This document shows, in pieces, positions 33,001-51,000 of a stretch of 64,000 bases of DNA. Position numbers: made by a program. Position 1 is the stretch's first letter. Every line of letters starts with the position of its first letter. Source of the DNA: Spirochaetaceae bacterium (lineage in GTDB: Bacteria > Spirochaetota > Spirochaetia > DSM-2461); contig JAOPTT010000011.1 of assembly GCA_051531975.1 (NCBI GenBank), forward strand, positions 1-64,000. The letters are read 5' to 3'.

Positions 33001-36000
33001 TAGACTTTTTTCAGCTTCTTTAAGTCTATTTTTTAAAGCTGTTTCTACATCAGAACCTTTAGATACTGGGCTTAGGAAATCTATGATTGTTGTTACTCCA
33101 CCATATATTCCAGCAATAGATCCACTATAAAAATCATCAGCGGAGATATATTTACCAATATTAAGATTCAGATGAACATGTGGGTCAATAATACCTGGTA
33201 TAATCTTTTTTCCAACTGCATCTATTATTTCCTCTGCATCAAAATTCTCAGGGGAAATCTTTTCAATAATTCCATTATTTACATAAATGTTTAACTTATG
33301 AAATTTTGAGTCTAAATATATCTCTGCATTTCTAACAGCTAAATTATACATTATAGTAACCCTCCATTTTTATACTTTTATACTTCTATAATTCTATATT
33401 GTTTAAAATTAAATAAATCTAAAATTTCTTGTAAACAGCCTTTTCTTACACAAGTAATAAGTGGAATATTTTGTTTCAAAATATTAACAATACTAGAATA
33501 AAAACATTTTTTTTGAAGTTCCATATGACCTAATTCATCAAAATAAATTGGAGCCAACTTTTCATTTATCAGAGTATAAACTCTTCATCATTGTCATTTT
33601 ATTTTTCTCCATCATAAAGTCGGTATATATTTTTATTAGTAAGATCAGTTAATATTTTTGTTGGATTTTTTATTTTACTTAAAAAAATCATGGCTGCTAT
33701 TATATAAGGTTTATAACTGGCTTCCTTATATAGAGGTATACGGAATTTATCAAAAACAGAAGCTTCAACTTCTCCCTGTTCGCAGCTAACACCTGTTATA
33801 TCCGCAGGTAGACAATGAAGATAAAGAGCATCTGCATTTTTTGTTGTTTTCATAAGTTCTTCCGTACATTCCCATGCTTTATGTCCAGAGTTTTGTTCTA
33901 ATAACTTCTTTTCAAGTTCTTTTATGGCATCAAAATCACCATTCCCATAGAGTTCTGTTCGTTCCTCCATGGCTTCATAAGGCGCCCAACTTTTAGGATA
34001 AACTATATCAGCATCTTTAAAAGCTTCTTCCATTGAATTGGTTTGTGTAAATTTACCACCAGATGAGATAGAATTTTTCTCTGCAATATCTAGAACTTCC
34101 GGCATAACTTCATATCCCTTTGGGTGGGCAAGTGTTACATCCATTCCAAAACGACTTAGTAGTCCTATAATACCCTGAGGTACAGAAAGTGGTTTTCCAT
34201 AGGATGGTGAATATGCCCAGGTCATAGCAATCTTTTTTCCTTTAAGATTTTCTACTCCACCAAAATGATGAATAATATGAAGTGCATCAGACATTGATTG
34301 GGTAGGGTGGTCAATATCACATTGTAAATTAACTAAGGTAGGACGTTGTTCTAGAACTCCATCTCTGTGTCCTTTAGAAACTGCATCTGCTACTTCTTTC
34401 ATGTAGGTATGGCCTTTTCCAATGTACATATCATCTCTAATCCCAATAATATCAGCCATGAAACTGATCATATTTGCAGTTTCCCTCACAGTTTCACCGT
34501 GAGCAATTTGTGATTTACCTTCTTCTAAATCCTGTACTTCTAGACCAAGAAGATTACATGCACTGGCAAAACTAAATCGTGTACGGGTTGAATTATCTCT
34601 AAAAAGTGATATTCCAAGACCACTATCAAATATTTTAGAGGAAATATTGTTTTTTCTCATCCTACGAAGAATTTCTGCTGTTTTAAATACAGCTGATATT
34701 TCATCATCACTTTTATCCCATGTTAATAGAAAGTCACTTAAATACATCTCTGAAGTATTTAGTTTTGAAAGTTGTTCTATTTGTTTTAATAATATCTCTT
34801 TATTCATTAAAATCTCCTATAGTGTTATATGTGTTCCTGTACCGTTAAAAAATGCTTCAGCTAAATTATCTGGATCTGTAATTATTACTTCTTTCCCTCC
34901 ATGTTTAAGGAAATCTAAGGATGCTTCTATTTTTGGTAACATGCTTCCCTTTGCAAACTGGTTATCCTTTAGGTGTTTTTTTATTTCATCTATGTTTACA
35001 TTTGATAGAGCTTTTTGTTCTGGAGTATTAAAATTTATTGCAACATTTTTAACTCCTGTTGAAACTATAAATGTATCTATATTTAAATTGGCAGCAAGAA
35101 GAGCAGAAGCTTTATCTTTATCTATAACAGCATCTATTCCTATTAGATTTCCTTCCTCTTCAATTACAGGTATACCACCACCTCCTGCAGCAATAATTAC
35201 AAAATTATTACTAATTAATGATTTTAATGCTTCAAGCTCAATTATTTTTACTGGCGTAGGGGATGCTACAACACGTCTATAACCCCGGCCTGAATCTTCT
35301 ATTAAGTTCCAACTTGGATTTGTTTTAATTAGATTTTTGTAATCCTGTTCTGAATAGAACTGCCCAATAGGTTTTGCTGGTTTTAAAAATGCTTCATCGT
35401 TTTTATCAACTAATACCTGAGTAATAATTGTTACTGCATTTTTTGTAATTTTTCTTTTTCTAAACTCATTATCTAAAGCCTGTTGTATCTGATAACCAAT
35501 AGCACCTTGAGTATCTGCATTACAGTTAACTAAAGGAACTGTATGCATGTGTTCAACCTGGTTAGCAATTTCAGAACGGTGTAGGATGAATCCTACTTGA
35601 GGTCCATTCCCATGGGTTATAACTACATTGTGACCATCTTGTATCAGTTCTGCAATCTGATATGCTGTTTCGCATATTGCCTTATATTGATCGTCAACTA
35701 ATTGATGTTTACTATCTTTAATTAGCGAGTTCCCACCTATGGCAATTAGGATTTTTTTCTTTTCCTTCATTATATTTTTCCTCTATGTTTTGTTGATTGG
35801 TTTCTTAAATAAAAAATGGCTTCTAAAACTCCATCATACTTGCCATCAAATATAACCTCTCTTATAGAGGTTGAATCATCATGGTTTGTAGCTATAACTA
35901 TATACGTATCTTTTTCTATCTCTGCCTGGTTTATGGCTTTTACAAGGTCATTATCATAATAACATTTTCTTGCCATGGGGAACCGTTCCTTTGATACAAA

Positions 36001-48000: not shown

Positions 48001-51000
48001 AGAAAGTCCTGCGGGTCCAGCACCAATAACTGCAACTTTTATATTTTTATCTAATTTAGGTTTGATCCAACCATCTTTAAACTCACTAAATCCGTTTTCA
48101 ACTGCAATTTTTTTCATCTCACGAATTTGAACAGCACCTTCGTAATCTAATCTTGTACAGTTATACATACACTGATGATCACAAATATATCCAGTAATTG
48201 AGGGAAGGGCATTTTTTGTATAGATTAATTCAATTGCCTCTTTATACTTTTTTTCTCCAACTAATTTAATATATTCAGGAATATCCTGATGAATAGGACA
48301 TGCATAAATACAAGGGGCGATATAACAATCAAATAGGGGAAGTGGTTTATTAACACTTATTTTATCATCACCTCGCCACTGCTTTTTTAAGTGACTTTCA
48401 GTAAGACAATCTTTTGCTAATTGTTTAAGTAGAGGTACATTGATAGACGTTCTATTCCAATCTGATGAATCAGTGGATGTCTCTAATTCCATAGCTGATT
48501 CTTTCATTCTTACATAGCCACCAGGCTTTAGTAGATCAGTTGCCATAGTTATTGGATGTATTCCGGTTTTAAAAATTTGTTTAATATTTATAGAAGAAGC
48601 ACCACCTGAATAGGAGATAGGAATATTACCATTAAATTCTTCTGCCAGCAAACTTGCAAGATTTATAGAAAGTGGATATAAAGCTCGACCGGACATGTAC
48701 ATTTCAGAACCTGGAAGCATCTGTTTGTTATTAATAATTCCTAATGTATTAGTAAGTTTAACTCCAAATTTTATGTTGTTTTCCACCGCCAGTTTCATTA
48801 GACGTCTTAACATTTTAATAGCATCATTAAACTGCAGATCATTATCAAATGATTCTTCTTTCATTTCGATATAGTTAAAACCAAGATTATCTAATATGTC
48901 TCTTACCATATTAAACCCAAGCAGTGTAGGGTTAAGTTTTACAAAGGTATTCAGTCCCTTTTGTGTTATCATATATTCACAAATTGCTTCGATCTCTTTT
49001 GGAGGACAACCATGCATAGTTGACAGAGTAAGTGATTTACATATCTGTGTCGGTATCTTCTTTGATAGACCTTTTAGTGACTCAATTTTTGACTCAATTC
49101 CAGTACCATTAAGGAAACTTGATTCTTCGATTATCCGGTCTAAAGCTGTTAAATAGTTTTTAAAAACCACGTTAGAGGATGAATCAATCATATCCATAAT
49201 GAAACGATCCATCTTAGGACTCTTAATTCCCTTTAAATCGTATCCGACACTCATATTAAATATAAACGAACGTTCTTTACCAACTTTAAAACCGAATAAA
49301 AGTTCTATAAGGTGAAGAAGAATCCAAGCTTTTATATATTCATCATATGCTTTTTCTAAAGTGAATTCAGATGACCACTCTGTATTAAATGCTTCATCAT
49401 CAGCATCTATACATGGCTTTTCAATTTCCAGGGTATCTATAATCTGAACGGTCTTTAACTCTATAAACCGTCCTCCTGTTAAATAGGAGCTAATGATATT
49501 TTGTGCTAACTGTGTATGAGGACCTGCTGCTGGTCCAACCGGTGTATCACAATGTTCGCCAAATACTTCACTTCTGTTTTTATTAGTTTTATGAAAGAAA
49601 TTGATTTGAGAGATTTCAAATATGGAATTTGAAACTTTATATTCACTAAAGATTCTTTTTAATAGTTCCTCGAACGGAACCTGTCTCATTATATCTCCCA
49701 TAAAAACCTCCACCCAAACTATTTTTGATACATGGAAACAATTATTCTTTTTGGAGTTATTCTGAAAAAAAGAATAAAAAAATCAGAAGACGTTGCCTTC
49801 TAAACTTAATATTAATTTAATGATAATATTGGTTTTTTTGTTTGGCAAGTACTTTTAATAAAAAATAAAGATTATGAATTTTATAAGATGTTCTACACAA
49901 CAAATAAATAGATTTTTATTGATTTATAAGTAAGTTTTTATAGTTTTCATCAGTATCTACATCCATGTATATTCCATCTGTATTCACAGGAACAAGACGT
50001 GTAGGGTAGATAGATAATAATTTCTTCATGGAGCTATCGACCTTCTCTGCCAATATTGTTTCAATTATTGTTTGTGGAAGTAGAACAGGATGTCCTCTTT
50101 TATCATTAAAAACAGGGAAAACAGCTTTGTTACCTTTAAACTTTGATAGTTTTTGGTAAATACTAGGAGGAATTAGAGGTAGATCACCATGGGTAATAAA
50201 AAAATATTCAGATTTTACAATACTTACACCTGTTTGAACCGATGTAAACATGCCTTTTTTGAACTCTTTATTTTCTATTATGATTATATTTTCCCATTGA
50301 CCTAATAATTCTATTAACTCAAAGCTTCTATATCCAACTACAACAATAACTCTTTCACAAACTGCTAAGGCATTATCTATTGTGGTTTCTATTAAACTTT
50401 TACCAGCAAATGGAAGTAACATCTTCCATGTACTCATCCTAGAGGACATTCCTGCTGCAAGGATAATGCAATCAATATCAATCTTCATATCAAAATATTA
50501 TAGCATTATTCCAGAGAATTTCCCAAATTTCTTATTTAAATGTAAACTAATAAATTATAGTTACATAAAAATATAATTTGACAGTTACTATAATTATTCC
50601 TATTGTAATATTGGAGATAAATATGGCATGGGTTAAACACAATAATATAATAATAATGGACTTTATAAAAAACTACTGTAATGAAAACAGATATAACCTC
50701 AATAGTTTTGAACCCTGGAAAGAAGGAGCATCTAACTCTATATGGAAACTAGAATACGACAATAAAAAATGTGTTTTAAAAGTTGGAAAACTGGATTATT
50801 GGAGAAAACTAGATATAGAAAGTAAAATCCTAAAAATTGGACAAGGGTTATATACTCCAGAATACATTGATTCAGGAAAAGCATCTGAATCGATTCCGTG
50901 GGATTGGGCCATTATTAAAAGAATAGATGGTACTCATCCTTTTTCTATAGAAGATGAAGATTTAGAAGAATTATCAAAATTGCTTTTATATATTAGAAAA

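Follow-up and report, generated by a model that had tools for sequence, protein, structure and literature searches.

In the 2,8-dioxopurine pathway of anaerobic purine degradation, YgeW and YgeY lead to 2,3-diaminopropionate (DAP), the substrate of the ammonia-lyase YgeX (DpaL), and the locus described here raises the question of how DAP is disposed of where YgeX is absent. The window analysed, 64,000 nucleotides of contig JAOPTT010000011.1 from a Spirochaetaceae bacterium (GCA_051531975.1), carries an operon of 13 minus-strand open reading frames running from 49713 to 31041 (Table 1). Ten of its 12 intergenic gaps measure -8 to 18 bases, the others being 103 (before ygfM) and 247 bases (before the hydantoinase gene). 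XdhD, YgfK, SsnA, YgeW, YgeY and carbamate kinase, the set shared with the known pathway cluster, all pass their NCBIfam cut-offs. YgeX does not: in this genome (98.5% complete) nothing reaches the TIGR01747 cut-off of 274 bits, the best score being 53, which confirms the absence reported in an earlier survey of the genome. Two other fold-II PLP genes stand between ygeY and the 8-oxoguanine deaminase gene, g03491 (enzyme B) and g03490 (enzyme A), and these do occupy YgeX's place in the cluster, as the survey had claimed.

Table 1. Genes of the purine operon, listed from its upstream end; positions count along the window.
Feature	Position	Strand	Basis
ygfK, 2,8-dioxopurine reductase (flavin/Fe-S)	46570..49713	-	TIGR03315 1481 bits, cut-off 835
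ssnA, ring-opening amidohydrolase	45223..46551	-	TIGR03314 624, cut-off 455.5; E. coli SsnA 62%
ygeY, ureido hydrolase forming 2,3-diaminopropionate	43990..45207	-	TIGR03526 487, cut-off 321.5; E. coli YgeY 49%
B (g03491), 386-aa ThrC-derived fold-II PLP enzyme	42827..43987	-	profile, fold, alignment
A (g03490), 486-aa PLP enzyme of CysK/CBS fold, extended at both termini	41370..42830	-	profile, fold, motifs
8-oxoguanine deaminase family enzyme	40006..41373	-	NF006055 596, cut-off 532
ygfM-like FAD subunit	39090..39902	-	TIGR03312 190, below cut-off 241.5; PF00941
xdhD, molybdenum urate reductase subunit	36229..39093	-	TIGR03313 1274, cut-off 1102
short XdhC/YqeB-like ORF, 152 aa	35770..36228	-	PF02625 and partial PF13478; two separate E. 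coli YqeB matches
carbamate kinase	34817..35770	-	TIGR00746 366, cut-off 358
ygeW, knotted carbamoyltransferase	33599..34807	-	TIGR03316 762, cut-off 500; E. coli YgeW 66%
hydantoinase-family enzyme, probable HyuA equivalent	32035..33351	-	TIGR02033 249, below cut-off 393
adenosine/adenine deaminase family enzyme	31041..32042	-	NF006850 541, cut-off 419

The survey had described the cluster as complete, hyuA included, which holds for XdhD, YgfK, SsnA, YgeW and YgeY but less well for HyuA: the hydantoinase gene lies beyond the span assigned to the cluster, misses its family cut-off and encodes a protein just 28% identical to E. coli HyuA, although it is the sole strong match to the HyuA family in the genome, and a homologue at 52% adjoins B in another locus (L154). 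Judging by its family name, the 8-oxoguanine deaminase family enzyme would supply urate to the pathway. The 152-residue XdhC/YqeB-like frame appears internally shortened; the genome also encodes a YqeB as well as SelD, the latter outside the operon. A promoter and terminator scan did no better than chance (82, with 88.6 expected). In one marine metatranscriptome, 27 short contigs fell on the operon at low depth, 26 of them at no less than 99% likeness, and they are not counted as expression because DNA carry-over is possible.

Gene content across the class shows that the pair travels with the pathway. Among 251 class genomes, a sample of our own that, like our other samples, is made up of related genomes, many of them MAGs, A was present in 120 and B in 123 (omitting G073, at 32% identity, as generic threonine synthase, ThrC), with both in 119 of the 124 genomes having either. 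YgeW was detected in 117, together with A in 112 and with B in 113, and YgeX in 33 of the 251. Most spirochaete purine degraders in this sample thus lack YgeX (85 of the 117 YgeW genomes), and of these 85, A is found in 81 and both enzymes in 80. The survey's finding that the g03490 family tracks YgeW more tightly than YgeX does is reproduced by these counts, and A is supported as a conserved, unannotated core member of purine clusters. Singling out g03490, on the other hand, is not supported: because B tracks YgeW equally well and the two genes coincide so closely, the functional unit is the pair. The survey had also worried that A and YgeX are not mutually exclusive. Of 12 spirochaete YgeX loci, eight lack any queried pathway enzyme, two sit in separate UacY/UacX-type clusters, one has a YgeY-like gene 6 kb off and one adjoins A and B, so that YgeX lies mostly outside the cluster; the worry nevertheless persists in part, since A and B are retained in 31 of the 32 genomes with both YgeW and YgeX. 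We also considered B by itself as a YgeX substitute that avoids YgeX genomes, an idea that failed, as 31 of the 33 class genomes with YgeX have B.

The pairing extends beyond this sample. In 50 further genomes carrying A, YgeX was found in none and B in 47 (E<1e-60). Among 54 Bacillota genomes with YgeY, 42 had A only, four YgeX only, seven both and one neither, i.e. YgeX is largely complementary to A in this phylum; B was present in all ten further Bacillota A genomes tested, and YgeX in nine of 20 with a core A. YgeY adjoins B in the present operon, and of 60 Bacillota genomes with A, 49 have a YgeY match of 400 bits or more. Four Bacillota genomes hold divergent relatives of A and give no match to B-type enzymes, YgeY or molybdenum hydroxylases. 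The A family is kept across several upstream variants (YgeW with YgeY; two other carbamoyltransferases with a kinase; a UacY-like version) and should therefore act after these converge.

Enzyme A is poorly served by existing annotation, as the survey had stated: its sole Pfam match is PF00291, it falls far below the family cut-offs for cysteine synthase (CysK; 98 of 351 bits for TIGR01139, its best NCBIfam score, and 86 of 344 for TIGR01136) and for SbnA (TIGR03945, 27 of 350), it has no match to the YgeX model TIGR01747 (cut-off 274), its best PDB match is at E 1.6e-17, and an ESM Atlas search returned PALP or unnamed clusters and nothing else. The predicted model (pLDDT 95.9) belongs to the CysK/CBS clade of fold II and has the PLP lysine, the glycine loop and the pyridine-binding serine; its best fold matches are beta-replacement enzymes of the CysK/CBS/SbnA-CmnB type (Z 30-36), led by Fn1220 (Z 36.0, rmsd 2.0, 298 residues aligned), CapA1 (34.2) and CmnB (32.6). 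A retains the PLP lysine (Lys107), GSGGT loop, NQF and G-V-S motifs of these enzymes, but SVKDR has become AHKVG and TSGN has become STGN, and helices are added at both termini; HKVG or HKIG occurs in all 171 A sequences and PSTGN in 170. A further motif, HRIEGIGD (GIGD in 168 of 171), places Asp296 of A on Asp232, the position of the D232N variant, of Fn1055, the Fusobacterium nucleatum cysteine (hydroxyl) lyase (PDB 5b53, 5b55), which shares HRIEGI-x-D and is the best PDB sequence match for A residues 201-400. In the excerpts of PMC9865163 and PMC12940168, Fn1055 is described as converting cysteine and water to L-serine. The two proteins are distant overall (E 3.7e-14), A being some 150 residues longer, bearing PSTGN and residing in purine clusters. 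YgeX (PDB 4d9g), likewise a fold-II PLP enzyme filling the same pathway slot, gives no BLAST match to A at E<1e-4 and a fold score of Z 23.7, below the beta-replacing enzymes. Fold, motif and gene neighbours point to a beta-replacement yielding serine, rather than to a plain stand-in ammonia-lyase.

Enzyme B (PLP lysine Lys104, cysteine pairs at the N-terminus) is closest by profile and fold to threonine synthases (Thermus thermophilus 1uim, Aquifex 2zsj) and CapA2 (9k3o), with E 2.8e-83 and Z 42.5-43.3. It passes the threonine synthase model TIGR00260 marginally (175 bits, cut-off 167) and misses PRK08197 (208 of 303) and YgeX (27 of 274). B is not taken for the housekeeping ThrC, since the genome has better candidates in two ThrC genes elsewhere (283 and 252 bits against 176). 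Three ThrC residues that we take to bind the substrate phosphate, T88, R160 and N188 in T. thermophilus numbering, correspond in B to A131, T203 and D231; among 57 B sequences the alanine and the aspartate are invariant, and arginine at 203 occurs in none. By alignment, the phosphate site of ThrC is gone from B, which has acquired Asp231 as an invariant residue. Its fold is also close to serine/threonine dehydratases (Z 36-37), and less so to YgeX (Z 34.3, with 24% identity over 136 aa). Aligned with YgeX, B has its RNTA[YF] loop at the QDTAW loop, both of the form T-A-aromatic, and its invariant Tyr176 at the NYDD tyrosine. The STGN loop of B is common to ThrC and DsdA; the aspartate of the YgeX TDGN loop, presumably catalytic, is threonine here in both A and B. 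A predicted A+B complex (score 0.00, mark 0.32, run without controls) is evidence neither way.

In Bacillota, A or B stands beside serine dehydratase or glyA genes in eight of 40 loci. In four loci A is followed, after no more than about 120 bases, by the pair sdaB-sdaA; these loci share flanks and may represent a single event, and B is retained in all four genomes. glyA is present in eight of the 40 loci against about 0.3 expected, and in five loci no more than about 230 bases separate it from A or B. Outside Bacillota, glyA was seen in two of 80 loci from further phyla, once on the opposite strand, and in none of eight spirochaete loci, so the serine link has a single phylum behind it. The dehydratase family PF03313 is found in 29 of 45 class genomes with A and B and in 10 of 35 without A, counts that are not decisive because the family includes other enzymes too; the 16 genomes lacking a match include single-contig ones.

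For substrate, product, order and stereochemistry we infer the following scheme. A and B would act as a PLP module of two steps, clearing DAP where YgeX is absent. B would bind the D (R) DAP made by the pathway, R configuration having been proposed for its intermediates (PMC12990295), and epimerise it or otherwise pass on a form acceptable to A, which would eliminate the 3-amino group and hydrate the aminoacrylate, so that L-serine and ammonia are formed. A separate serine dehydratase could then convert the serine to pyruvate, or GlyA could take it to glycine and methylene-THF. A precedent for a racemase paired with a stereospecific lyase, for the anaerobic breakdown of a beta-substituted alanine, is CuyB-CuyA (a racemase for cysteate together with a sulfo-lyase for D-cysteate; excerpts of PMC11193023), compared here by description rather than by sequence, with a different substrate and the direction L to D. 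That the pair disposes of DAP at all is probable; the exact order, B handling D-DAP before A makes L-serine, is a tentative choice with slightly less than an even chance. Weighing against the scheme are the persistence of the pair beside YgeX in the class and in the core-A Bacillota, the class genomes without PF03313, the four Bacillota genomes without a B-type or YgeY match, and the fact that no residue of B was identified as a racemase base. The survey's broader prediction, that most spirochaete purine degraders finish the pathway by a different PLP step, is supported in part, insofar as YgeX is mostly missing and A and B stand in its gap, and is amended to a pair, with a serine-forming replacement favoured.

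The same pairing and complementarity counts would fit a reverse order, in which A makes serine from DAP and B, as a serine dehydratase, gives pyruvate, the two doing the whole job of YgeX in two steps. This would account for the A+B genomes without an Fe-S dehydratase-family gene and suits the fold of B, near the serine/threonine dehydratases, but we consider it unlikely: B is retained where sdaBA directly follows A, its invariant Asp231 would suit an amine over a hydroxyl, and A would need to accept the proposed R/D substrate, while to our knowledge the characterised fold neighbours of A use L substrates. We assign a similarly low likelihood to direct ammonia-lyases forming pyruvate, either one for each DAP enantiomer or B as the lyase with A as helper, the serine neighbours being incidental. 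This is the survey's different PLP step at its simplest. What the genome lacks is precisely the YgeX step, YgeX acts on both DAP isomers (PMC12507026), and B shares the aligned loop and tyrosine; however, the YgeX aspartates of both TDGN and QDTAW are absent from A and B, parallel enzymes would be expected to be lost separately more often than in five of 124 genomes, and the sdaBA/glyA adjacency and Fn1055-type motif would be left unexplained.

The Fn1055 motif could also mean that A is a cysteine or selenocysteine lyase providing sulfide or selenide for molybdenum hydroxylase maturation, with serine as by-product and B alone replacing YgeX. SelD and YqeB are encoded in the genome, A directly follows an xdhC-like gene in four loci (L008, L009, L011, L012) and it precedes sdaBA-yqeC-mocA-yqeB in four others (L246, L249, L250, L251). 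Such a role is improbable, as cofactor loading would presumably yield too little serine to favour a coupled dehydratase, A tracks YgeY and YgeW, its relatives occur in the four genomes without a molybdenum hydroxylase match, and in E. coli the pathway operates from an annotated cluster that has YgeX and lacks an A-like gene. Action one step earlier, releasing urea from a ureido-alanine by beta-elimination or replacement and bypassing YgeY, is very improbable: albizziin, a beta-substituted alanine and so of the substrate type of CysK-fold enzymes, is a proposed pathway intermediate and 31 class genomes carry YgeX alongside the pair, but YgeY is next to B here and frequent in Bacillota A genomes, and where a cluster has two carbamoyltransferases, both ureido groups would be removed, yet the A family is kept.

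Searches of the literature returned no description of the A+B pair; they did not extend to the supplements of PMC12507026 and the bioRxiv studies, which possibly name these genes. New here are the Fn1055 aspartate kept in A, the position of A or B beside serine dehydratase and glyA genes in Bacillota, and the loss of the phosphate site in B. A five-gene test for the pathway requires YgeX (bioRxiv 2022.12.12.520169), and surveys built on this requirement miss most carriers in the present samples, while counting any PF00291 gene as YgeX (PMC12507026) masks the difference between A/B and YgeX. Pathway stereochemistry and an ancient versus a gut origin are named as open questions in a commentary (PMC12990295), and the pair bears on both. 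It is conceivable, although we lean against so broad a statement, that the commonest ending of purine degradation outside the gut models consists of a ThrC-derived DAP epimerase and a new DAP hydro-lyase forming L-serine, the YgeX version being one branch of an old environmental trait. With the roles proposed for A and B, two large families that currently go under the names cysteine synthase and threonine synthase would be misannotated, and were serine the product, purine carbon could reach glycine and one-carbon metabolism, beyond pyruvate.

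The survey's finding that a purine-degradation cluster in the window lacks YgeX, the 2,3-diaminopropionate (DAP) ammonia-lyase, was borne out: YgfK, SsnA, YgeY, XdhD, carbamate kinase and YgeW all score above their NCBIfam cut-offs, and YgeX has no match over cut-off in the genome, which is 98.5% complete. According to passages of bioRxiv 2025.05.19.654654 and 2025.04.24.650524, YgeW and YgeY lead to DAP, which YgeX converts to pyruvate. The window instead encodes two PLP enzymes, g03490 (hereafter A; 486 aa, CysK/CBS fold) and g03491 (B; 386 aa, ThrC-derived, fold II), within a run of 13 genes whose intergenic gaps are -8 to 18 bases in 10 of 12 cases, with ygeY, B, A and the 8-oxoguanine deaminase gene abutting or overlapping. 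The hyuA reported earlier corresponds to a hydantoinase gene, last but one in the run and outside the interval first described (33600..49700); it scores 249 against a cut-off of 393, has 28% identity to E. coli HyuA, and is the genome's only strong match. The xdhC-like ORF of the run looks internally shortened from its sequence, since its mere 152 aa align with E. coli YqeB in two separate stretches; contig C17 of the same genome holds two more YqeB/XdhC matches. A PatB-family C-S lyase gene lies 19 kb from A, and such genes occur in 5 of 80 A loci, L075 among them.

Features of the purine operon in transcription order, and other open reading frames discussed
Feature	Location	Strand
13-gene run	window 49713 to 31041	minus
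1, ygfK		minus
2, ssnA		minus
3, ygeY		minus
4, B (g03491)	window 42827-43987	minus
5, A (g03490)	window 41370-42830	minus
6, 8-oxoguanine deaminase		minus
7, ygfM-like		minus
8, xdhD		minus
9, short xdhC-like ORF	window 35770-36228	minus
10, carbamate kinase		minus
11, ygeW		minus
12, hydantoinase		minus
13, adenosine deaminase		minus
PatB-family C-S lyase	window 21082-22251
PatB-family C-S lyase	L075:7833-8996
194-aa ORF	L075:13056-13637

The unit is the A+B pair. Among 251 genomes of the class Spirochaetia, each at least 90% complete, A was found in 120, B in 123 (leaving out one generic ThrC match), YgeW in 117 and YgeX in 33, and A and B occurred together in 119 of the 124 having either. 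The claim that A tracks YgeW held (112 of 117), but A is not singled out by it, B being equal at 113 of 117. Both were present in 80 of the 85 YgeW genomes without YgeX, and each was kept in 31 of the 32 with it, so within this class A and YgeX are not mutually exclusive, as the survey had cautioned. Eight of 12 fetched YgeX loci of the class hold no pathway enzyme among the queries used, two are separate UacY/UacX-type clusters, one has a YgeY-like gene 6 kb off and one adjoins A+B. In 50 further A genomes from the 80 loci (records not titled spirochaete, completeness unknown) YgeX was found in none, and 47 carry a B-type gene at E<1e-60. Two spirochaete genomes (L155, L164) carry a C. difficile-type YgeX-YgeY-UacY-UacX cluster, and in genome G142 such a cluster and an A+B/YgeW cluster lie 320 kb apart; at L167 (G183) YgeX is broken into two overlapping frames, with A and B intact. 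The sole same-genus genome sampled (G115) has no matches to A, B, YgeW or YgeX.

No NCBIfam cut-off is reached by A, whose sole Pfam match is PF00291 and whose best PDB sequence match is a cysteine synthase (E 1.6e-17). All 8000 scored candidates passed E 1e-20, giving at least 8000 relatives, annotated at source as cysteine synthase or PLP-dependent enzyme; the best 120 of the 8000 are nearly all full length at 65-87% identity. Sources of the best 80 GTDB loci include spirochaetes, Chloroflexota, Thermotogae, Bipolaricaulota, Synergistaceae, Acidobacteriota and others. A 194-aa ORF between A and dihydropyrimidinase in Anaerolineae-type loci, with relatives in 18 of the 80, has no Pfam or NCBIfam match. 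Among 261 Bacillota genomes (the phylum of genome G259), 60 have A relatives, 20 of them close at 55-66% and the other 40 split between two divergent groups at 34-45%, and 35 have YgeX. The divergent subfamilies (L230-L249; 42-45% and 34-42% identity) lie mostly within purine clusters, with YgeX in none of their 40 genomes, and a few of their genes are solitary, in genomes without a molybdenum hydroxylase match. Where YgeY reaches 400 bits (54 genomes), A occurs without YgeX in 42, YgeX without A in 4, the two together in 7, and neither in 1; for the 65 genomes over the curated cut-off these numbers become 44, 10, 9 and 2. The Fisher p of 0.005 overstates the significance, because the sample consists of related genomes, MAGs in many cases. 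Against a strict link count the 9 of 20 close-A genomes with YgeX alongside, and four divergent-A genomes without B-type, YgeY or molybdenum hydroxylase matches. In six Bacillota clusters (L253, L254, L257, L258, L259, L265) the gene immediately after B encodes a PuuR-like regulator.

The A family is constant across loci whose upstream genes differ. Spirochaetes have YgeW and YgeY there; Anaerolineae, Thermotogae and Bipolaricaulota have carbamate kinase with one or two other carbamoyltransferases; and L073 and L240 have a UacY-like hydrolase. Since these variants should all converge on DAP, we infer that DAP or a later intermediate is the most likely substrate of the pair. Purine clusters in which carbamate kinase is accompanied by two carbamoyltransferases other than YgeW (L018, L022, L034, L044, L046, L063, L080; L040, L043, L053, L069, L077, L079) may phosphorolyse both ureido groups, for two ATP per purine.

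The predicted structure of A is confident (pLDDT 95.9), and beta-replacing enzymes lead its fold comparison (Fn1220, Z 36.0, rmsd 2.0 over 298 aligned residues; CapA1, 34.2; OASS, 33.9; CmnB, 32.6), YgeX reaching 23.7; Foldseek agrees. Characterised fold neighbours of A use L amino acids. Its PLP lysine and loops do not vary. Over residues 201-400 A is matched best among PDB sequences by Fn1055, the Fusobacterium nucleatum cysteine (hydroxyl) lyase, whose HRIEGISD aligns with HRIEGIGD of A. The Asp of HRIEGISD, the residue mutated in the D232N structure, presumably activates water; GIGD occurs in 168 of 171 near-full-length A-family sequences, spanning all three subgroups. Passages of PMC9865163 and PMC12940168 describe Fn1055 as forming L-serine and H2S from cysteine and water, with Asp232 a key residue.

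In fold, the model of B resembles threonine synthase and CapA2 (Z 42.5 and 43.3), and B lies narrowly over the TIGR00260 cut-off; it was rejected as the genome's ThrC, two better ThrC genes being present. T88, R160 and N188 of T. thermophilus ThrC, which we take to bind the substrate phosphate, correspond to Ala131, Thr203 and Asp231 in B; across 57 aligned sequences Ala131 and Asp231 are invariant and Arg never occupies 203. Judged from these alignments, an acid replacing the anion site is well suited to binding an amine, for instance that of DAP. The two aspartates of YgeX are not in B, although one loop and one tyrosine resemble it.

Serine genes neighbour the pair in Bacillota, where glyA occurs in 8 of 40 wide loci against about 0.3 expected, no more than about 230 bases from A or B at 5 of them, and sdaB-sdaA lies within about 120 bases downstream of A in 4, counts that include L250 and L251, extended with their sda genes already known. 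The four sdaBA loci have flanks in common and may reflect a single event. Among loci of other phyla glyA was found in just 2 of 80, in one case on the opposite strand to A, and it was in none of 8 spirochaete loci; the window's genome encodes a serine dehydratase and GlyA outside this contig, and PF03313 is unmatched in 16 of 45 A+B class genomes. L246, L249, L250 and L251 have the common order gatB-regulator-A-sdaB-sdaA-yqeC-mocA-yqeB-glyA, but A is of the close type in two of these genomes and of a divergent type in the remaining two, which suggests that A was replaced in place.

The tight pairing, the serine neighbours and the two active sites would be accounted for most simply if B converted D-DAP to L-DAP and A formed L-serine and ammonia from L-DAP and water, the serine then going to pyruvate, or to glycine and a one-carbon unit; we favour this scheme tentatively, at rather less than even chances. 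The R configuration has been proposed for the pathway intermediates (PMC12990295). The reverse order, with A first and B a serine dehydratase, seems unlikely: B persists in each of the four genomes in which sdaBA follows A, which argues against B as serine dehydratase only. We consider it similarly doubtful that A and B are direct ammonia-lyases, and improbable that A is a sulfur or selenium donor; that the pair acts on albizziin is less probable still.

In Li et al. (PMC12507026) every neighbouring gene with PF00291 is coloured as YgeX, and the word 'synthase' is absent from the published main text. Our literature search, with supplements and most subscription papers beyond its scope, found no paper on the pair. 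The A+B clusters are a real, widespread variant of the pathway solved in 2025, in which two enzyme families would be misnamed and serine, under the scheme of B followed by A, would be the product, a prediction open to test.
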